Source: Elusimicrobiaceae bacterium
GTDB lineage: Bacteria > Elusimicrobiota > Elusimicrobia > Elusimicrobiales > Elusimicrobiaceae
Assembly (NCBI GenBank): GCA_045634505.1
Contig: JAZRAH010000088.1
Coordinates: forward strand, 6,474-70,473
Length of the DNA: 64,000 nucleotides
Direction: 5' to 3'
The translations under genes were made by a program, and so were the position numbers. Numbering within the stretch: the first letter of the stretch is position 1; every line of letters begins with the position of its first letter. A model generated the notes under the pieces. The model made no database searches, was not told where the DNA came from, and saw only the letters and a program-made list of their open reading frames with translations. Shown piece by piece: positions 8,921-62,584 of this stretch.

Positions 8921-8926
8921 TATAAT
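8921..8926 (+). promoter_or_regulatory. -10 box of pilin cassette 1
   Basis: TATAAT, 6 nt before ACAATTTG; same spacing in copies 2, 3, 8, 9. Confidence 0.7.
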
Positions 8927-8932
8927 GTAAGT

Positions 8933-9160
8933 ACAATTTGATTCTGTTTTTGGAAGCGTTTAAGAAACGCAGTGCTTAGCAAAGCCCTCATTCCCTCCAA
9001 AAACAGCCGTTTAACAGGTACAAAATGACGACGGTCGTTTTGTACCTAGTGTTTGCCGTTCGCAAGGACGGCAAGCCGCGGCTGTTATGTTGGGACTGGG
9101 AATGAGGACCAATACTAACAGCCGTTTTTGCATGCGTTTTCCAAACCAGACAAATTGAAT
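8933..9160 (+). ncRNA. Structured pilin-leader element, copy 1
   Basis: ACAATTTGATTCTGTTTTTGGAA...TCCAAAAACAGCCG...CGGCTGTT...AACAGCCGTTTTT...TTCCAAACCAGACAAATTG; barcode CCTCATTCCC (8986-8995)/GGGAATGAGG (9098-9107). Confidence 0.85.
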
Positions 9161-9185: not shown

Positions 9186-9202
9186 AAAAAAGGAGACGTA
9201 AC

Positions 9203-9982
9203 ATGCAAAACAAAAACCAACCCGTCATTGCGAGGAGCACCGCGACGAAGCAATCCACTCAAAACAAAAAAGGCTGTCATTCCCGAGTGTTTTTATCGGG
9301 AATCTACAACGCATGCCGTTGTAAAATTGAGGGAAATTCCTTATTAAATAGGTACGTGGAAGATCCCCGACAGAAACCCTCGGGGATGACCTCTTGTGTT
9401 ACAACAGCCCGCGGCTTTACCGCCCGCTCCGGTTTTACTCTTATGGAGCTGTTAGTTGTAGTTTTAATTATTGGCATTTTGGCCGCCGTGGCTGTGCCAC
9501 AATACCAAAAAGCGGTTAAAAAAGCGCGGCTAGCAGAATTTATTTCTACCATTTCTTCTATTGAAAAAGCGGTGGATGTATGGCTTTTGGAAAATGGCGG
9601 ATACCCTGAAGATTGGGTGTGGTTTACTAGTAAGGAGAACCCTTCCCTTACTTATTCTTCGCTAGATATTAAGATGTCTTGTGCGAAAGAGGATCGCTCA
9701 TCTTGTTACACCCGGCTGGGAGGATGGGATATCTATTGTATGCCTTCTTCCTGCGGTATCAATTTATATACAACTTATGATGAAAATGGAGCAACTACAA
9801 ATACTTGGTTAGATAAGGCGTTTATTTCTGTACGCAAACGCCCGTCCGATGAAAATATATGGAAAATAGAAAGTGCTACCCAAAATACAAAATTAGTTTG
9901 CCAAGTGTGGAAGGAAACTTTTGGTACGTCTCATATGCGTGCAAGTTTTAAAGAGACGTGTGCGGAATTAGGGGTAGAATAA
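9203..9982 (+). CDS. Type IV pilin-like protein 1 (PilE-type) with 77-aa leader
   Basis: G|[28 protein letters not shown]; SD AGGAG; Cys-containing variable C-terminus. Confidence 0.9.
   Translation: MQNKNQPVIARSTATKQSTQNKKGCHSRVFLSGIYNACRCKIEGNSLLNRYVEDPRQKPSGMTSCVTTARGFTARSGFTLMELLVVVLIIGILAAVAVPQYQKAVKKARLAEFISTISSIEKAVDVWLLENGGYPEDWVWFTSKENPSLTYSSLDIKMSCAKEDRSSCYTRLGGWDIYCMPSSCGINLYTTYDENGATTNTWLDKAFISVRKRPSDENIWKIESATQNTKLVCQVWKETFGTSHMRASFKETCAELGVE
9223..9390. repeat. CGTC-type REP half plus REP doublet inside prepilin leader 1
   Basis: CGTCATTGCGAGGAGC..GACGAAGCAATCC (9223-9256) and TGTCATTCCCGAG...CTCGGGGATGAC (9275-9390). Confidence 0.8.
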
Positions 9983-18796: not shown

Positions 18797-19016
18797 ACAA
18801 TTTGATTCTGTTTTTGGAACCGTTTAAGAAACGGGGTGCTTTATAAGCTATCTTCGAGTCCAAAAACAGCCGATATTAGGCACACAAAGGCGACGGCCTG
18901 CGTGTGCCGAGTGTTTCCCGTCTTAATGACGGGAGGCTGCGGCTGTTGTCCTAAGACCTCGAAGATACTTAGTGTCAATAGCCGTTTTATGTGTTCCGGA
19001 TGACAGGAAAATTGAA
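18797..19016 (+). ncRNA. Structured pilin-leader element, copy 2
   Basis: TATACT 18785-18790, 6 nt, then ACAATTTGATTCTGTTTTTGGAAC; barcode TATCTTCGAG (18849-18858)/CTCGAAGATA (18958-18967). Confidence 0.85.
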
Positions 19017-20532: not shown

Positions 20533-20681
20533 ATCACCGAGTAAAGTAGTCAGTAGGCTGATTTGTCAGATTTGAGGCAAATTGGAACCGTAAGTTGCCC
20601 GAAGCTGTACTGATAGGTACTGCGAGTGGCAAGTCGGTTTCAAGTTGCCCAAATGTGGCAAATGGTTGCCTGGAAAGCAAC
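20533..20681 (+). repeat. Rod-shaped structured repeat (family S), copy A
   Basis: ATCACCG-AG-TAAAGT...GATTTGTCAGATTTG...AGTTGCCC...GGCAAG...CCAAATGTGGCAAAT; homologous to 39279-39496 and 62351-62512. Confidence 0.7.
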
Positions 20682-20711
20682 GCACCCCAAAACTTTGTGT
20701 TTTGGGGTGCG
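20681..20711. terminator. Strong hairpin, probable terminator
   Basis: CGCACCCCAAAAC-loop-GTTTTGGGGTGCG. Confidence 0.6.
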
Positions 20712-26397: not shown

Positions 26398-26630
26398 ACA
26401 ATTTAATCTGTTTTTGGAAGCCGAAAGGCACCGTTGCCAAGGGCAACAATTATCACTCCAGAAACAACCCAATCGGGTGCAAGGGAAACGGACTAATTAC
26501 CCGTTTATCTTGCGCCAAATGTTTTCCGTTTTGCGGAGAGCTGCGGCTGTTTGTGTTTCATGGGTGTGATAATTCATGGGGCTATGCAGCCGTTGTTTTA
26601 TGGGTGCGTTTTCCAAACGGACAAATTGAA
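26398..26630 (+). ncRNA. Structured pilin-leader element, copy 3
   Basis: TATACT 26386-26391 + 6 nt; barcode AATTATCAC (26448-26456)/GTGATAATT (26566-26574); ends TTCCAAACGGACAAATTGAA. Confidence 0.85.
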
Positions 26631-35412: not shown

Positions 35413-36066
35413 TTAATAGTTGCAATGTTTGTCAGGCCCACATATACTTTTGCATAAATTTTGGAAATTTTCTCCTCCGGCATAGCACCAAAAACGGTTG
35501 GGTTGATATTTCTTTTCATTAAAAGGGAATGCATATTCTAATGAAAGAAGGCCTGAATCTGTGGGTTGGTATATGCCGGCGGCTCTGTCTTTTCCGATGT
35601 TTGAAGAATTGTAATAAGCGCGGTTACAATCTAAGGTAAAGTATTTTTTTTCGTTTACTAAGTGTTTTTTTCCGTCTAATTCATACTCGTTAGGGGCATC
35701 TATGCCTAATTCTTCACAATTGGCGGCGTATGTGCCGTTCTCCAAATAGTAAACATCTTGCATTTCTTTGATGTGTTTTACAAGCAGGAGAAGTTCGGTT
35801 ACACGGGATTTATCCACCGCCTTTTGATATTGCGGCACCGCCACCGCCGCCAAAATACCAATGATGAGAACAACGACCAATAGTTCAATGAGCGTAAAGC
35901 CCCGCGCTGTTGTTCTATGAAGTGTCATCCCCGAGTGTCTCTGTCGGGGATCTCCTCCTTGCGCGTCGTTAAAAGCGGTAGGGATTCCCGACAACATTCC
36001 TCGGGAATGACCCTTTTTATTTACTACTGGTTGCGTACTCCCCCGCCGGGTATTTTTATTTTGCAT
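35413..36066 (-). CDS. Type IV pilin-like protein 4 with 56-aa leader
   Basis: G|[28 protein letters not shown]; REP doublet 35923-36011 in leader. Confidence 0.9.
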   Translation of the reverse strand: MQNKNTRRGSTQPVVNKKGHSRGMLSGIPTAFNDAQGGDPRQRHSGMTLHRTTARGFTLIELLVVVLIIGILAAVAVPQYQKAVDKSRVTELLLLVKHIKEMQDVYYLENGTYAANCEELGIDAPNEYELDGKKHLVNEKKYFTLDCNRAYYNSSNIGKDRAAGIYQPTDSGLLSLEYAFPFNEKKYQPNRFWCYAGGENFQNLCKSICGPDKHCNY

Positions 36067-36089: not shown

Positions 36090-36316
36090 GGGCCCGGCAT
36101 AAAAAACGGCTTATTATACCGAGCTCAACAAGGTCGCTCTATATAACAGCCGTAGCTGCCGTTTTTGTAAACGGCAAACATTCAGCACAAAACAATGGGG
36201 TTATAAGGCCCATCATCTTGTGCTTTATACAGCTGTTTTTGACCTTGTTGAAAGTTGCTTTCGCAGCTGACCCGCATGCTTATCATGCGGTTTCAAAAAC
36301 AGTAAAAAACAATTGT
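36090..36316 (-). ncRNA. Structured pilin-leader element, copy 4
   Basis: Minus strand ACAATTG..CTGTTTTTGA...TCAAAAACAG...CGGCTGTT...AGCCGTTTTTT; 11-bp barcode at 36241-36251/36125-36135. Confidence 0.82.
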
Positions 36317-38366: not shown

Positions 38367-38597
38367 ACAATTTGATCTATTTTTGAGCCGTATGTAGAAT
38401 ACGGGTCTGCTTTGAAAAAAGCACCCATCGAAGTCAAAAATAGCCGATAAATAGGTGCAACGGGACCGTACATCCTGTTGCACCGAGTGTTTCCCATTTT
38501 TGCCTTGTGCAAAAGTGGGAACCTACGGCTATTATATTAGGTATCTTCGATGGGGCCTGGTATAAAAGCCGTTTTTGCATGCGCTTGGGATAGGTCA
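38367..38597 (+). ncRNA. Structured pilin-leader element, copy 5
   Basis: Compensated CTATTTTTGA/TCAAAAATAG and TAGCCG/CGGCTA; barcode CCCATCGAAG (38424-38433)/CTTCGATGGG (38545-38554). Confidence 0.85.
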
Positions 38598-39278: not shown

Positions 39279-39496
39279 ATCACCGCGTACAATTTACAGT
39301 GAGCTGATTTTCGCACAACCTGTACTAAAACACCACGCTTCCCCAAGCACCAGATTTATAGAAGATAAGATGATTTTTCAGATTTGAGCCGTATTTGTGG
39401 GGCTAGTTGCCCGCATAGGCGTGTCTGAATGACACGTCAAGGGCAAGGGACCGCAAAGACGGCCAAATGTGGAAAATTGTATCGCTGGCAAGCAAC
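39279..39496 (+). repeat. Rod-shaped structured repeat (family S), copy B
   Basis: ATCACCG-CG-TACAAT...GATTTTTCAGATTTG...AGTTGCCC...GGGCAAG...CCAAATGTGGAAAATTGTATCGCT. Confidence 0.7.
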
Positions 39497-39558
39497 AAAA
39501 TTTAAACATCTTTCGTGTTTAAATTTTGTGTGCTCAAAGAAATTTCGCGGTGTGTTTT

Positions 39559-47198: not shown

Positions 47199-47407
47199 CA
47201 ATTTTTTGTTTATAGATTATTTGTTGAAGTGCGGGGCAAGCCCGTGCCGAGCAAAATAGGGGACACCCTATGAGCATGTTAGAGATCATCAAATAATCGC
47301 CTTGCTTTGGCCTGCCTCTTATGGGGCAGGCTGGCGGCGGTTATTGTTTAAGGGTCATCTCTAACAGCTCTTAACTAAGATTGCCGCTTTTTTGTTGGGT
47401 AAATTAA
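47199..47407 (+). ncRNA. Structured pilin-leader element, copy 6 (divergent subtype)
   Basis: GATTATTTGTTGA/TCATCAAATAATC; GCGGCGGT/ATTGCCGC+T6; barcode TGTTAGAGAT (47277-47286)/ATCTCTAACA (47357-47366). Confidence 0.78.
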
Positions 47408-47425: not shown

Positions 47426-48007
47426 ATGAAAAAAGAAAATGTAATTGTCATTTGTCCCCCTTGTGGGGAAAACGTCGCGTTAGCGACAAAAAGAGGGGCC
47501 AATAAAGTATTACCTATTTTGCCCCTCCTACCCCGCCTTACGGCGGTACTCCCTCCACAAGGGAGGGAGATAACAGCCCGTGGCTTTAAGCTCATTGAGC
47601 TCTTAGTCGTGGTACTCATTATTGGCATATTAGCCGCCGTAGCCGTGCCACAATATCAATTAGCTGTAGAAAAATCGCGCGCAGAGACAGCCCCTTCTGT
47701 ATTAAAGACCATCTGGACAGCCCAGCAAATATATTATCTTGCCAATGGTACATACGCTTCTACATTTGATGTTTTAGATATAGAAATACCGCAAAATGAA
47801 TATTTTACCTATCAGCAAGACAGTATGTCTGTTTTTGCCGTTAGTACACGAAAAAATTACACAATATCTTTTCGCTTTAATCGACAAATTTATGAATGGA
47901 TTGTATGTTATGCTACTTTAGACACTGATGTTGAACAAGCCAGACGGATTTGTAAAAATTTAGGGGCAGATATTAGTAGTGGAGATCGTTGGCCAATCGT
48001 AAAATAG
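47426..48007 (+). CDS. Type IV pilin-like protein 6 with 53-aa leader
   Basis: G|[28 protein letters not shown]; C/G-rich palindromic doublet 47455-47570 in leader. Confidence 0.9.
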   Translation: MKKENVIVICPPCGENVALATKRGANKVLPILPLLPRLTAVLPPQGREITARGFKLIELLVVVLIIGILAAVAVPQYQLAVEKSRAETAPSVLKTIWTAQQIYYLANGTYASTFDVLDIEIPQNEYFTYQQDSMSVFAVSTRKNYTISFRFNRQIYEWIVCYATLDTDVEQARRICKNLGADISSGDRWPIVK

Positions 48008-50660: not shown

Positions 50661-50688
50661 AACGGAGGAAAGGCCGCTGAACATATAC

Positions 50689-50884
50689 ACAATTTGATGA
50701 TTTGTTGGAAGTAAGGGGCAAGCCCTTACTGCGCCGGGCGCAACTTGCGCAAGGCACATACGAGTCCGCAAATATCGTTGTTTTTCACCCGCCCCGTAAG
50801 GGGCGGGGGAGCGACGATTTGCACGGGTTACTCGTATGGCTCAGGCAATCGTCGTTTTTTGTCTGTGCCCGAAGAAACTATCAT
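50689..50884 (+). ncRNA. Structured pilin-leader element, copy 7 (divergent subtype)
   Basis: ACAATTTGATGATTTGTTGGA/TCCGCAAATATC; CGACGATT/AATCGTCG+T6; barcode CATACGAG (50757-50764)/CTCGTATG (50831-50838). Confidence 0.8.
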
Positions 50885-50897
50885 ACGAGGTGCACTT

Positions 50898-51642
50898 ATG
50901 CACATGTTTAGTCATACCCGGCGGGGTTTCACGCAAGACAGTCCTTGTCAAAATAAACGTCATTCCCGAGTGTCGTTATCGGGAATCCCCACCTTAGTCC
51001 CTCAAAATGGAGAAGATCCCCGATTACAGATCTCGGGGATGACGCTTTATAGAATAACAGCTCGTGGCTTTTCTCTACGCCGTCATCCTGAACTTGATTC
51101 AGGATCTTCAACGCTTGCCGTTGTCGTTCATAAACAGCGTGCGTGGAAGATGCCAAATCAAGTTTGGCATGACAACTTTACTGAATAATGGCGGGTTCAC
51201 CCTCATTGAACTCTTGGTCGTAGTACTCATCATTGGTATATTGGCGGCAGTGGCTTTGCCACAATATCAAAAAGCGGTTATGAAAAGTAGGCTCGGGCAG
51301 GTTCACAGTGTGCTGCGCACGTTGCGTACGGGTATAGATAATTATATATTGGCCAACGGAGCCGATGGGACAATCTTTTTAGGATATGATGAGGATAAAA
51401 CCTCGTTGTTAGACATTAACTTTGGTACCCAATTTGATTGTTCTGACCATGGAGACGATATTGCTGAAGGCTGTTTGCTTCACGATTTTGTGTATAGAGC
51501 CACCACTGATTATGTGGAAGCATACGATAAGGAACAACGTTTTTTAATAGGATATGACAACCGGGGTGAACAAGGTTGGCAGCCCAGTTGTGCTTCAGGA
51601 GGAGAATGGGCATGGATTTGTGATTATTGGAATAGTTTATAA
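50898..51642 (+). pseudogene. Type IV pilin-like gene 7; leader frame stops at 51188, pilin frame is +1 (possible restart at ATG 51169)
   Basis: SD GAGGTG then MHMFSHTRRGFTQ; two REP doublets 50958-51044 and 51081-51173; G|FTLIELL in the other frame. Confidence 0.75.
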
Positions 51643-56393: not shown

Positions 56394-56625
56394 AGATCCC
56401 CGATAAAGACTCTCGGGGATGACGCTAATAGATGTCAGGCTTACACCTGACCTATAAGATATCAGCCAAACCATTCCGGCCGTCATTGCGGGGAACGAAG
56501 GGACGAAGCAATCTTATAAACAACATAGATTGCCGCGCTTACGCTCGCAATGACGACAACGACAGATCCCCGACAAAGACACTCGGGAATGACACTTATT
56601 TAATGTCAGGCATAGCCTGACCTAC
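56394..56625. repeat. BIME-like mosaic of REP-like palindromes
   Basis: AGATCCCCG..CGGGGATGAC (56394, 56564), TGTCAGG..CCTGACCTA (56433, 56604), CGTCATTGCG...CGCAATGACG (56481-56555). Confidence 0.82.
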
Positions 56626-56667: not shown

Positions 56668-56896
56668 ACAATTTGATTCTGTTTTTGGAACCGTATGCAG
56701 AATACGGATAGCTTAAAAGGCCATAGACAGTCCAAAAACAGCCGATACTAAGGTGCAGACGGGGACTATAGCCCTGCCTGTGCCGAATTGTTTCCCGCTT
56801 GCTAAAAGCGGGGAACTACGGCTGTTATGGCGTGTCACTGTCTAGGCGTGCTATAGCAGCCGTTTTATGTGCGTTTTCAGGGCAGAGTAAAATTGA
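56668..56896 (+). ncRNA. Structured pilin-leader element, copy 8
   Basis: TGnTATAAT + 6 nt; 8921-8955 and 56656-56690 identical; barcode TAGACAGT (56724-56731)/ACTGTCTA (56837-56844). Confidence 0.85.
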
Positions 56897-56919: not shown

Positions 56920-57597
56920 ATGAACAAAAGACTTGCCCGGCGGGGAATAACGCAACAATTAATCAAAGGCAATTCAGTAAATATCCCTGAACTTGTTTCA
57001 GGGTCTTCCACGCAAGCTGCTGTGCAACAAAGGCCCCAACGACAGGCGTTGAAGATGCCGAAACAAGTTCGGCAATATCCTTATTTAACAAGGGGCCAGG
57101 GATTTACCCTGATTGAACTGTTGGTGGTTGTGCTAATTATAGGTATATTGGCTGCTATTGCCTTGCCGCAATACCAAAAAGCAGTATTAAAAAGTAGAAT
57201 GGTGGATGCAATTGGTATGTTGCGTACCATACAAAAGGCACAAGAAGTATATTATTTAAATCATGGGAATTATACAACCGATTTAGATGATTTGGATATA
57301 GAAATTCCAGCAAATCAAAAAGCTACTTCTTTTGCATATTCAAGTGAGTCTTATCCTTTGCGGTATTTTTACAGTTGCCATGCAAATGGATTTTGCGTAG
57401 CAGCGGCGCAGGATGATAATTTACCAATTATAGAAGTACACATGATGCATGCATTTTCTGGTAACAACAATCAGATGACTTGTGCTGCATTTAAAAACAA
57501 TACTTATAACAAAAGTAATTTGGCGGAGAAGCTTTGCCGAAGTATGGGGCCTGTTAGCCACACATGGGAAGGTACGGTATATTATGAAATACGTTAG
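56920..57597 (+). CDS. Type IV pilin-like protein 8 with 61-aa leader
   Basis: G|[28 protein letters not shown]; degenerate REP doublet about 56980-57078. Confidence 0.9.
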   Translation: MNKRLARRGITQQLIKGNSVNIPELVSGSSTQAAVQQRPQRQALKMPKQVRQYPYLTRGQGFTLIELLVVVLIIGILAAIALPQYQKAVLKSRMVDAIGMLRTIQKAQEVYYLNHGNYTTDLDDLDIEIPANQKATSFAYSSESYPLRYFYSCHANGFCVAAAQDDNLPIIEVHMMHAFSGNNNQMTCAAFKNNTYNKSNLAEKLCRSMGPVSHTWEGTVYYEIR

Positions 57598-58355
57598 CGT
57601 GTTGTCTGCAAGGTTACCCGCCACAGAAATTCGGTATTGCCGTGAGTGCCTTTAATGGGGGACTCAATTACTTCGCCGGAAACGGCACCGTATTTTTCGC
57701 GCAGGTTTTCTTCAAAAAAATCTTGTACGCGCTTGATAGCCAGTTGGCGGTTTTCGTCCGTTTTTACAATGCCGTGAGGTACTTGTTTGGGGGTCAGTTC
57801 AAATTGCGGCTTAATTAAAAACACAATTTCGCTTTGTGGGGCCATTACCTTAAATAGCGGCTCCATAATTAGGGTGAGGGAAATAAAAGACACGTCCACT
57901 GCCGCCACTTGCGGGGCTTCTTCAAATAAATCGGGCGTCATATAGCGGGCGTTGGTTTCCGGCTTAAAAATAAAATTGGTGTACCGCCGCATTTCGTCCG
58001 CCAGTTGGCCCTTTCCTACGTCCACGCCGTAAACCGTTTTAGCGCCGGCTTGCAGCATACAATCACTAAACCCGCCGGTGGCTACGCCAATGTCCACGCA
58101 GACTTTGCCCTTTACAGAAATGTTCCAGTGTTTTAAAGCGTGTGCTAATTTTAGCCCGCCGCGCGAGACATAAGGGCAGGATTTTTCTTTTAAGGAAAGG
58201 TGGTCTTCGGGCAGGATAGCACGGTCGGCCCGGGTTTCCACCTGGTTATTTACCAGCACTTCGCCCGCCATAATGGAGGCTTGGGCACGGTTGCGGCTTT
58301 GAAAAAAGCCTTGCGCCACCAGTGCCATATCCAGGCGCAGTTTATTCTTCGCCAT
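57594..58355 (-). CDS. tlyA: TlyA-family rRNA methyltransferase
   Basis: RLD, YVSRGGLKL, DIGVATGGF, DVSFISL, LIKPQFE, GN.EF. Confidence 0.93.
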   Translation of the reverse strand: MAKNKLRLDMALVAQGFFQSRNRAQASIMAGEVLVNNQVETRADRAILPEDHLSLKEKSCPYVSRGGLKLAHALKHWNISVKGKVCVDIGVATGGFSDCMLQAGAKTVYGVDVGKGQLADEMRRYTNFIFKPETNARYMTPDLFEEAPQVAAVDVSFISLTLIMEPLFKVMAPQSEIVFLIKPQFELTPKQVPHGIVKTDENRQLAIKRVQDFFEENLREKYGAVSGEVIESPIKGTHGNTEFLWRVTLQTTR

Positions 58356-61377: not shown

Positions 61378-61597
61378 ACAATTTGATTTGTTTTTGAGCC
61401 GTATGTGGAATACGGGTTGCTTCGTAAGAAGTATTCAGCAAAGTCAAAAACAGCTGAACAAAGGCACACAAAGGCGACGGCTGGCGTGTGCCGAGTGTTT
61501 CCTGCATTTTTTGTGGGGGCTGCGGCTGTTATGTTTGGTTACTTTGCTGAGACCTGACAAAGCAGCCGATTTTGTTGGCTCTGAATGGATCAATTGA
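61378..61597 (+). ncRNA. Structured pilin-leader element, copy 9
   Basis: TATACT + 6 nt; barcode TCAGCAAAGT (61435-61444)/ACTTTGCTGA (61541-61550); closing GAGCC/GGCTC compensation. Confidence 0.85.
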
Positions 61598-62312: not shown

Positions 62313-62512
62313 ATACAATTTTTCCGCACGCGTTACGCGTGCGGAATTTCATCACCGGGTAAAATAGCGGATAAGATGATTTTTCAAATTCGTGCTTAGT
62401 TTGTGGGGAAAAGTTGGCTCGTGGCGTACGTCTGCCGGACCGCGCGTAGCGCGGCAAGTACGTGAGAGCCAAGTCACCACAAACTAAGCCGAATTTGGAA
62501 AATTGTATCGCT
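62313..62512 (+). repeat. Rod-shaped structured repeat (family S), copy C
   Basis: ATCACCG-GG-TAAAAT...GATTTTTCAAATTCG GCTTAGTTTGTGG...CCACAAACTAAGC CGAATTTGGAAAATTGTATCGCT. Confidence 0.7.
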
Positions 62513-62584
62513 AAGAAATACGGAACTTTATGTCCGTCGTTTATTTTTCTTATACGCGCGTTCTAAAAATACTATAATAATAAT

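Follow-up and report, generated by a model that had tools for sequence, protein, structure and literature searches.

The stretch of DNA analyzed here, which we call the window, comprises 64,000 nucleotides (nt) of contig JAZRAH010000088.1 of an Elusimicrobiaceae bacterium (assembly GCA_045634505.1), and it carries nine copies of an element of ~200 nt that lies, on the sense strand, between a promoter and an open reading frame (ORF) for a type IV pilin-like protein. We refer to this element as the pilin leader. All nine copies have a TATAAT-like box upstream, and a Shine-Dalgarno sequence, an ATG and a same-strand ORF downstream; the 5' end of the leader is found directly past the TATAAT-like box, and its 3' end is located 30-80 nt ahead of the Shine-Dalgarno sequence. 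The downstream ORFs encode type IV pilin-like proteins of 190-260 aa, and the prokaryotic N-terminal methylation motif (PF07963) was detected in five of the six window ORFs that were scanned, while the sixth (47426-48007) matched Pilin_GH (PF16734). Each leader contains two short segments that are exact reverse complements of each other and that differ from copy to copy. This pair, the barcode, with its 5' arm B5 and its 3' arm B3, is the subject of the present analysis.

When the nine copies were extracted with their flanks, one shared architecture was recognized. The first half of the RNA presents, in this order, the strand P1a (CUGUUUUUGGA), the hairpins H1 and H2, B5, the strand P1b/AT5' (UCCAAAAACAGCCG), the hairpin H3, the junction GAGUGUUU and the hairpin H4; the second half consists of the strand T5' (CGGCUGUUA), the 5' half of an upper terminator stem, B3, the 3' half of that stem, the strand T3' (UAACAGCCG) and a U-tract. 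The last hairpin of the leader is thus followed by a T run and looks like an intrinsic terminator. The features of copy 1 are the following:

8921-8926, plus strand: likely -10 box TATAAT, by direct reading (TATAAT or TATACT in the other copies)
8933-8943, plus strand: conserved 5' element ACAATTTGATT, 85-95% conserved in 140 leaders, able to pair with CAAATTG past the terminator
8944-8954, plus strand: P1a CTGTTTTTGGA, the 5' strand of P1 (anti-antiterminator), exact reverse complement of 8996-9006
8956-8970, plus strand: hairpin H1 (GCGTTT AAG AAACGC), from minimum free energy (MFE) folds, identical in the syntenic orthologues L122 and L126
8974-8985, plus strand: hairpin H2 (GCTT AGCA AAGC), from MFE folds, covarying between close leaders
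8986-8995, plus strand: barcode 5' arm B5 CCTCATTCCC, from the exact pairing test and covariance
8996-9009, plus strand: P1b/antiterminator 5' strand TCCAAAAACAGCCG, whose partner is P1a or 9079-9093
9017-9046, plus strand: hairpin H3, 12 of 12 pairs covarying (helix 3 of the covariance alignment)
9047-9054, plus strand: conserved junction TAGTGTTT (family consensus GAGTGTTT)
9055-9072, plus strand: hairpin H4, 11 of 11 pairs covarying (helix 4 of the covariance alignment)
9079-9087, plus strand: T5' CGGCTGTTA, a shared strand that is either the antiterminator 3' strand or the lower terminator 5' strand, from pair tables
9088-9097, plus strand: 5' half of the upper terminator stem, TGTTGG (9088-9093), plus GACT, from folds
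9098-9107, plus strand: barcode 3' arm B3 GGGAATGAGG at the top of the terminator hairpin, from pairing, folds and covariance
9109-9114, plus strand: 3' half of the upper terminator stem, CCAATA, from folds
9116-9124, plus strand: T3' TAACAGCCG, from folds and the pair table
9125-9129, plus strand: U-tract TTTTT, by sequence
9139-9157, plus strand: post-terminator segment TTCCAAACCAGACAAATTG, complementary to the leader 5' end (8933-8955), from the MFE folds of copies 1 and 2
9191-9982, plus strand: Shine-Dalgarno AGGAG, ATG at 9203 and a type IV pilin-like ORF of 259 aa (Pfam PF07963, N_methyl)

A consensus promoter scanner called a nearby overlapping site in copy 1 rather than the TATAAT at 8921-8926. 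Several positions of the junction between H3 and H4 are at least 95% conserved, and the other junctions are variable. In copy 1, P1a is the exact complement of TCCAAAAACAG, and TTGGGA, within 9088-9097, could alternatively pair with TCCAA of 8996-9000. Furthermore, AACAGCCG is present twice in this copy, in AT5' and in T3', and both occurrences are complementary to CGGCTGTT. Two sets of pairings are therefore available to the leader: P1a with P1b together with T5' with T3' (the terminator), or AT5' with T5' (the antiterminator), which B5 and B3 would extend outward.

Another aspect to mention is the complementarity between the two ends of the leader region. Blocks of complementarity link the leader 5' end ACAATTTGATTCTGTTTTTGGAA to the post-terminator sequence TTCCAAAC-CAG-ACAAATTG, ~35 nt 5' of the Shine-Dalgarno sequence. 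Equivalents of this complementarity (8933-8955 with 9139-9157 in copy 1) are found in copies 2, 3, 8 and 9, and the segments are paired in the MFE folds of copies 1 and 2. Such a long-range helix would be possible in read-through transcripts only.

An earlier reading of the window from its sequence alone (hereafter the sequence-only reading) had described nine complementary pairs, different in every copy, and all nine were found to be exact, with start positions 8986/9098, 18849/18958, 26448/26566, 36125/36241, 38424/38545, 47277/47357, 50757/50831, 56724/56837 and 61435/61541. The pair at 36125/36241 belongs to a leader on the minus strand, a point that the earlier list had missed. The arms of copies 2 to 9 are located as follows:

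18849-18858, plus strand: copy 2 (leader ~18797-18989), B5 TATCTTCGAG
18958-18967, plus strand: copy 2, B3 CTCGAAGATA
26448-26456, plus strand: copy 3 (leader ~26398-26600), B5 AATTATCAC
26566-26574, plus strand: copy 3, B3 GTGATAATT
36241-36251, minus strand: copy 4 (leader from ~36313 down to 36100), B5, in the RNA TCAACAAGGTC
36125-36135, minus strand: copy 4, B3, in the RNA GACCTTGTTGA
38424-38433, plus strand: copy 5 (leader ~38367-38577), B5 CCCATCGAAG
38545-38554, plus strand: copy 5, B3 CTTCGATGGG
47277-47286, plus strand: copy 6 (subfamily 2, without H3; leader ~47205-47394), B5 TGTTAGAGAT
47215-47226, 47287-47301, 47336-47345 and 47378-47387, plus strand: copy 6, strands P1a, P1b/AT5', T5' and T3', respectively
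47357-47366, plus strand: copy 6, B3 ATCTCTAACA
50757-50764, plus strand: copy 7 (subfamily 2; leader ~50688-50861), B5 CATACGAG
50696-50709, 50765-50780, 50812-50822 and 50845-50854, plus strand: copy 7, strands P1a, P1b/AT5', T5' and T3', respectively
50831-50838, plus strand: copy 7, B3 CTCGTATG
56724-56731, plus strand: copy 8 (leader ~56668-56867), B5 TAGACAGT, identical in the syntenic orthologue L067
56837-56844, plus strand: copy 8, B3 ACTGTCTA
61435-61444, plus strand: copy 9 (leader ~61378-61573), B5 TCAGCAAAGT
61541-61550, plus strand: copy 9, B3 ACTTTGCTGA

As for the claim that the arms occupy two fixed positions, the kind of position holds for all copies, but the strand that had been given as the landmark 3' of B5 is of the TCCAAAAACAG type in the seven typical copies only, where it reads TCCAAAAACAG, TCCAGAAACAA or GTCAAAAAYAG. 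The copies at 47277 and 50757, which we call subfamily 2, are shorter, are devoid of the middle hairpin H3, and present CATCAAATAATC and TCCGCAAATATC as the equivalent strands. In these two copies and in a homologue (L108, barcode GGTTTCAAGT/ACTTGAAACC, with the same arrangement), P1, AT and T have sequences of their own that still fit one another, in addition to their own barcodes. A covariance model (R1) run on the window recovered the seven typical copies and copy 6, found no further copy, and missed copy 7, which was assigned to the leader family through hand alignment and folding.

Two local matches of barcode arms were observed in the window. The 5' arm 8-mer of copy 7 (CATACGAG) is repeated on the Shine-Dalgarno region (CATACGAGGTG, 50882-50889), so that B3 of this copy (50831-50838) could also pair with the ribosome-binding site; this is one case, and it may be due to chance. 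In addition, 9 nt of the 5' arm of copy 2 (TATCTTCGA, 18849-18857) are the same as the terminator top of copy 5 (38542-38550). The terminator loops of copies 2 and 5 are consequently complementary to each other over 9 nt, which we judge to be probably a coincidence.

Homologues were searched for in one genome per species with a pattern made of the conserved AT5', T5' and T3' strands, leaving the barcode out of the pattern. The scan gave at least 110 loci, and among the loci listed 103 were true leaders and seven were chance matches in other phyla. The first loci examined near homologous pilins already gave new exact barcodes: CCGCAAGAAGAAA/TTTCTTCTTGCGG (L001), CACAGAAA/TTTCTGTG (L005), CGAATCAGT/ACTGATTCG (L007) and GGGCTAGTTAC/GTAACTAGCCC (L008). 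A search with nhmmer over the collected sequence then yielded 140 unique full-length leaders from Elusimicrobiaceae metagenome-assembled genomes (MAGs); all homologues are MAG sequences and are phylogenetically non-independent. One MAG contains at least 19 copies. Judging from protein homologues, the window itself belongs with the gut and rumen MAGs of this family. In the homologues, the pilin N-methyl motif is present in 96 of 120 downstream ORFs, and the median distance from the terminator to the start codon is 44 nt. Four true leaders (L013, L057, L082 and L092) were located in MAGs that bear the labels Spirochaetes, Muribaculaceae, uncultured bacterium and Eggerthellaceae; mis-binning of Elusimicrobiaceae contigs is a much likelier reason for this than a wider distribution of the leader.

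To evaluate the barcode in this sample, we took the 20 nt that precede the CCAAAAA anchor and the stretch bounded by CGGCTGTT and AGCCG, and determined the longest exact Watson-Crick run between the two. This run reached 7 or more in 139 of the 140 leaders (mode 10, range 7-13), and the leaders carry 131 distinct barcode sequences, with a GC content of 44% and no conserved position. B5 ends 0-3 nt before the anchor and B3 starts 10-14 nt past T5'. When the 5' window of one leader was confronted with the terminator top of another, the mean run was 4.4 and runs of at least 7 appeared in 2.5% of the combinations, mostly orthologues; with shuffled terminator tops, such runs were likewise rare. When 131 leaders were aligned with a covariance model, each of the 10 barcode pairs varied on both sides, and every interior pair showed all four Watson-Crick types in comparable numbers. 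The barcode cells of this alignment are paired in 96% of the cases, vs 33-48% when the partner is slid by 1-3 columns, and the observed covariation values were reached by none of 500 shuffles. The same structure, composed of the barcode helix, the antiterminator, H3 and H4, was obtained independently by RNAalifold on a plain MAFFT alignment of 28 leaders. These results confirm that the barcode helix is real and far beyond chance. The spread of its duplex energy is modestly narrower than that of random sequences (standard deviation 2.9 vs 3.8); compensation between length and GC content, which would be a sign of tuned stability, was absent (Spearman 0.08).

Orthologous loci were also compared. 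At the syntenic locus of copy 1 (MscL-pilin-leader-GDPD, with GDPD 78-81% identical), CCTCATTCCC is replaced in four other species by one of three different barcodes, namely CTTTGGATC (two species), TCTTAAGGGT and TAAACCGA, with the two arms matching perfectly every time. Two of these species have the same H1 as copy 1, and the core motifs of P1, the junction and the terminator are conserved throughout the four. Two other leaders, L048 and L039, whose flanking gene is 69% identical, have barcodes that differ by two compensated transversions, and copy 8 and its orthologue L067, with flanks 92-96% identical, share the same barcode. The barcode can thus turn over completely, always with compensation, and it is identical in close syntenic orthologues. 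Together with the 139 exact pairings and the covariation, this strongly supports what the sequence-only reading had proposed, i.e. selection on pairing and not on sequence. Among similar, mostly non-syntenic leaders, the barcode is the region that diverges fastest: in the pairs copy 4/L107 and L099/L114, ~92% identical outside it, 40-60% of the barcode positions differ. We do not claim positive selection, because these close pairs are mostly non-syntenic and because in syntenic orthologues the barcode is unchanged or changes no faster than the flanking DNA.

Differences in the pilin gene itself were also noted. In the comparison of copy 8 with L067 (MAG RUG10714; window 56953-57613), the leader and the 5' end of the gene are 88-96% identical, but no nucleotide similarity could be detected across the body of the pilin gene, which suggests a cassette-like replacement or an extreme diversification. 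Moreover, in L120 and L121 (2009-2500 and 1154-1645) and in L123, a CsgG-like gene or an MFS transporter replaces the pilin and its leader beside the GDPD gene; among them are the two closest relatives whose upstream flank was usable (GDPD 86-87% identical). Gain and loss thus affect the pilin locus itself.

A peculiarity of the barcode is the near-absence of G·U pairs, at most 8 among 1365 pairs, with 0-1 of 131 per interior column. The share of G·U is 6% in H1/H2, 13% in H3/H4 and 26% in the upper terminator stem, and the depletion in the barcode with respect to the other helices is highly significant (Fisher p 4e-19 to 5e-98).

The other helices were analyzed through pair tables and folding. 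In the P1a:P1b table of the 140 leaders, G-C, G-U and A-U variants are present, and in the P1, AT and T tables (131-140 leaders) the G-U and A-U substitutions preserve the alternative pairings. The antiterminator AACAGCCG:CGGCTGTT is paired in 98.8% of the cells (helix 2 of the covariance alignment) and the lower terminator stem in 89.6%. Folded alone, the terminator hairpin has a family mean of -21.6 kcal/mol, and it is followed by a U-tract with a mean of 6.2 T in the 8 nt after AGCCG. The whole leader of copy 1 folds at -85.9 kcal/mol (z-score -8.3). It should be noted that all energies given here are nearest-neighbour predictions, in which pseudoknots, kinetics and proteins are ignored.

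When the pairing of the barcode was forced, the best structure was a single interrupted helix of 21.6±2.0 base pairs (bp), composed of the barcode (~10 bp), ~5 bp in which xCCAAA pairs with the TTTGG-like 5' half of the upper terminator stem, and an AT core of 8 bp. Without forcing, the barcode is nested on the antiterminator in the MFE folds of copies 1, 2, 4, 6 and 7. The 3' half of the terminator (e.g. CTCAAATATAACAGCCG) resembles P1b/AT5' (TCCAAAAACAGCCG), so that these two strands would compete for one partner instead of coexisting with it. Pairing of P1a with the terminator 3' strand as a further general feature of the antiterminated state was also considered; it is predicted in copy 1 but in only 35 of 139 leaders, and it was discarded.

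MFE folds of transcripts of increasing length, calculated for 139 leaders, suggest how these structures may succeed one another. In transcripts that end at P1b, P1 is formed in 129 leaders; at T5', P1 remains in 33 and the antiterminator appears in 105; at B3, the counts are 2 for P1, 135 for the antiterminator and 132 for the barcode; and at T3' they are 79 for P1, 58 for the antiterminator, 57 for the barcode and 76 for the terminator. Before the terminator 5' strand has been transcribed, a mean of 77% of the B5 nucleotides are predicted to be unpaired (139 family-1 leaders). At the moment when B3 emerges, the barcode contributes -11.3±3.2 kcal/mol, and the AT core, present in the MFE of 135 of the 139 transcripts ending at B3, is found in 96 when the barcode is masked. 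For the whole leader, the state with the barcode differs from the state with P1 and terminator by -3.5±4.9 kcal/mol. The presence of the helices, the fact that they exclude one another and the balance between their energies are shown in silico.

As regards its anatomy, the pilin leader has the position of an attenuator, a hairpin followed by a U-tract, a competing antiterminator, and an upstream helix, P1, that sequesters the antiterminator strand. From all this, we consider it probable that the barcode is the outermost, sequence-free part, of ~10 bp, of a long-range antiterminator helix in a transcription-attenuation leader of pilin genes. In the OFF state, P1a would pair with P1b, and T5' with the upper 5' half would pair with the upper 3' half and T3', giving an intrinsic terminator with B3 on top. 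In the ON state, the strand B5-P1b-AT5' would pair with the strand T5'-upper 5' half-B3 in an interrupted helix of ~22 bp that closes the H3/H4 junction; since this helix uses strands of the terminator, the latter could not form. B5 would be waiting single-stranded beside P1, and B3 would emerge just ahead of the terminator 3' half. The B5:B3 duplex (~-13 kcal/mol) could then act as a clamp and as a counterweight to the upper terminator stem, and also as a toehold or nucleation site, which would allow the antiterminator strand to displace P1a and pre-empt the upper terminator stem. The leader would thus be a poised, nearly balanced two-state switch, with termination presumably conditional.

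The same model could account for the contrast between the barcode and its surroundings. P1a, P1b/AT5', T5' and T3' have two or three alternative partners each; they are nearly invariant, and their variants use G·U, by which they remain compatible with all of their partners. Only the barcode has a single pairing partner, and for this reason its sequence is free to vary; it could drift through compensated changes until every paralogue has become unique. As for the lack of G·U, we favor the possibility that full stability per pair and fast zippering are needed: B3 forms the top of the terminator and must stay short, so each of its pairs would have to give full stability. Specificity, or recognition as perfect double-stranded RNA, are alternatives. 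In summary, the barcode would be an ordinary but very clean covarying helix in an apparently undescribed attenuator.

Several points weigh against the attenuator model. The near-absence of G·U in the barcode is not predicted by a plain structural role. In 57 of the 139 leaders the barcode together with the antiterminator is the equilibrium MFE even with the terminator present, so there would be little termination in them unless kinetics dominate. No effector was identified and Rfam gave no match, hence the "switch" may be constitutive or purely kinetic. The energy figures come from predictions unable to score pseudoknots, including one that would combine P1, the barcode and the lower terminator. 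A simple terminator scanner did not call the terminator of copy 1, whose loop exceeds the 3-8 nt limit of that program. Finally, the conservation of AT5', T5' and T3' is overstated, because the sampling pattern fixes these motifs.

The sequence-only reading had proposed a pseudoknot or kissing helix. In a static version of it, P1 and at minimum the lower terminator stem would persist when B5 pairs with the terminator loop, in a compact fold that would stabilize one state, possibly the terminated one, or build a binding site. The topology agrees in part, since the barcode does cross P1 and the terminator: B5 abuts P1b (0-3 nt), P1 (11 bp) and the barcode (10 bp) could stack coaxially in an H-type arrangement, and B3 caps the terminator hairpin; this alternative lies beyond what nested folding programs can score. 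However, the apical loop of the terminator is predicted to have 3-13 nt and is usually shorter than B3, which is flanked there by 0-4 unpaired nt on its 5' side and by none on its 3' side. The ends of B3 therefore lie in the upper stem, and a 10-bp helix would be impossible with that stem closed; it would require the melting of an upper stem that itself covaries, and the loop is too short for static kissing. Furthermore, the barcode is contiguous with the antiterminator and with CCAAA:TTTGG in one composite helix of 22 bp, nested on AACAGCCG:CGGCTGTT and coaxial with it, and the mimicry of P1b/AT5' by the terminator 3' half speaks for competition and not for coexistence. We regard a static pseudoknot as unlikely. 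Under the attenuator model, the barcode would be pseudoknotted only relative to the helices of the OFF state and nested in the helix of the ON state.

The barcode had also been suggested to act as a locus-specific address, with insulation of the paralogs or guide-like activity. According to this idea, it would keep the dozens of near-identical paralogous leaders of a cell from cross-pairing, or the abundant terminated leader RNA of a locus would act in trans on the nascent transcript of that locus alone, as a locus-specific feedback. The diversity of the barcodes (nine of nine distinct in the window, besides the 131 among 140 leaders) and the fact that they diverge fastest among closely similar, mostly non-syntenic leaders are in line with it, and the almost pure Watson-Crick composition would sharpen specificity. 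On the other hand, random 10-mers are orthogonal anyway: cross-complementarity within genomes is at chance level (mean 4.29 vs 4.39 between genomes), and one pair of leaders of the same genome has a 10-nt match. A search for barcode targets in the window gave 27 8-mer matches elsewhere vs ~45 expected by chance, which we rejected as evidence of targets. Besides, in syntenic orthologues the turnover of the barcode is ordinary, no faster than that of the flanks, and once termination has occurred the two arms of a molecule can pair with each other in cis, so that little of either would remain free for a partner in trans. The address thus found no support in these tests, and we think it improbable. 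To a related proposal, in which the barcode would be a code of self-recognition, with strand exchange nucleated only in cis or only by RNA of the same locus, we also give little credence. If it were true, each pilin paralogue would be switched independently, or would feed back on itself independently, and RNA-level addressing would operate in a multigene family of surface proteins.

A site for double-strand RNA processing, e.g. by RNase III, appears even less plausible. Through cleavage, read-through transcripts would lose their 5' domain, and the stability of the mRNA would be set in this way. Helices of ~22 bp are the size class of RNase III substrates, which the composite helix of 21.6±2.0 bp with its internal loops resembles, and the strong avoidance of G·U and mismatches in the barcode needs an explanation. 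But the enzyme tolerates G·U, G·U pairs and bulges are present elsewhere in the composite helix, and processing would in any case be compatible with an attenuator role. Lastly, it is extremely improbable that the arms are DNA-level inverted repeats (a recombinase site or invertible switch, a cruciform or the end of a mobile element): perfect Watson-Crick pairing without G·U is as expected of such repeats, but variable ends around a conserved interior are the reverse of a mobile element, arms that differ at every locus (131 different arm sequences) could not be used by a sequence-specific recombinase, the use of G·U by all other leader helices marks them as RNA structures, and none of the 140 leaders was inverted, all nhmmer matches being co-linear.

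With respect to described systems, a search of Rfam 15 with gathering thresholds and with E-values up to 5 gave no match to any leader, and thus no described class of riboswitch aptamer, the only hits being a tRNA and noise. In the literature on Elusimicrobia pilins, riboswitches, RNA motifs and attenuation we found no description of the leader, and no conserved small ORF that could encode a leader peptide was seen on direct reading of the window copies. The principle of three helices (anti-antiterminator, antiterminator and intrinsic terminator) is that of the attenuators summarized in PMC5314783. As in the PyrR-controlled pyr leaders of Bacillus and in OFF-riboswitch platforms, the pilin leader is a sense 5' leader in which the terminator 5' strand has an alternative partner upstream, and the upstream antiterminator strand is itself sequestered by a 5'-proximal helix, here P1. 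Unlike them, it matches no described family in Rfam and is so far a candidate without effector; its antiterminator is extended by a sequence-free segment of 10 bp whose 3' arm is the terminator loop; and it is present in dozens of copies per genome ahead of one paralogous gene family.

Other systems share single aspects of the barcode. The P1 stems of riboswitch paralogues and the acceptor stems of tRNAs also have a helix sequence of their own in each copy and maintain complementarity via compensatory change, whereas the barcode is long-range (~75-120 nt between the arms), is nearly free of G·U and has nearly invariant flanks. T-box leaders constitute a homologous attenuation family in which a short sequence particular to each paralogue pairs with RNA and decides between terminator and antiterminator, but there a codon serves as the specifier and a tRNA acts as the partner in trans, while both arms of the pilin leader are in cis; no T-box match was obtained in Rfam, and neither Stem I nor a T-box sequence was found in the leaders. 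In the antisense control of ColE1 (RNA I/RNA II), pT181, pIP501 and pAMβ1, variable short loops likewise choose partners, and pairing switches between terminator and non-terminator folds. The partners in those systems are transcribed separately from the two opposite strands of the same DNA segment, in contrast to the two segments of a single transcript that form the arms here, for which no partner in trans was found by the 8-mer search in the window and the cross-complementarity of the leaders.

Some other elements of the window were observed during the analysis. The pilin-like ORFs (9203-9440 and equivalents) have an unusually long N-terminal extension, of ~40-80 aa, before the prepilin cleavage/methylation motif, and these extensions begin at a strong Shine-Dalgarno sequence and a predicted ATG start. 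Short palindromes resembling REP (repetitive extragenic palindromic) sequences occur in several pilin ORFs, in the 5' portion that runs from the start codon to the FTLIELL motif (9276-9304, 9362-9397, 35924-36018, 50959-51050, 56395-56430 and 56565-56600); they read GTCATYCCCGAG..ATCGGGRATC and GATCCCCGA..CTCGGGGATGAC. In addition, a second conserved non-coding element appears in three copies on the plus strand (20546-20700, 39358-39500 and 62364-62515), two of them directly 3' of the pilin genes of copies 5 and 9. A hairpin follows its consensus, GATGATTTTTCAGATTTGAG ... CCAAATGTGGAAAATTGTATCGCT. The element gave no match in Rfam and could be a further structured RNA.

The barcode helix provides ~130 natural variants of a disrupt-and-rescue experiment, and thereby unusually clean evidence for an alternative RNA fold. 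Being free of G·U, it may also help to understand how a long-range helix can prevail over local hairpins as the RNA is transcribed. The Elusimicrobiaceae of gut and rumen have very large families of pilin-like surface proteins, and we know of nothing described about their control. The pilin leader is a candidate orphan riboswitch or protein-dependent attenuator for this whole repertoire of surface antigens.

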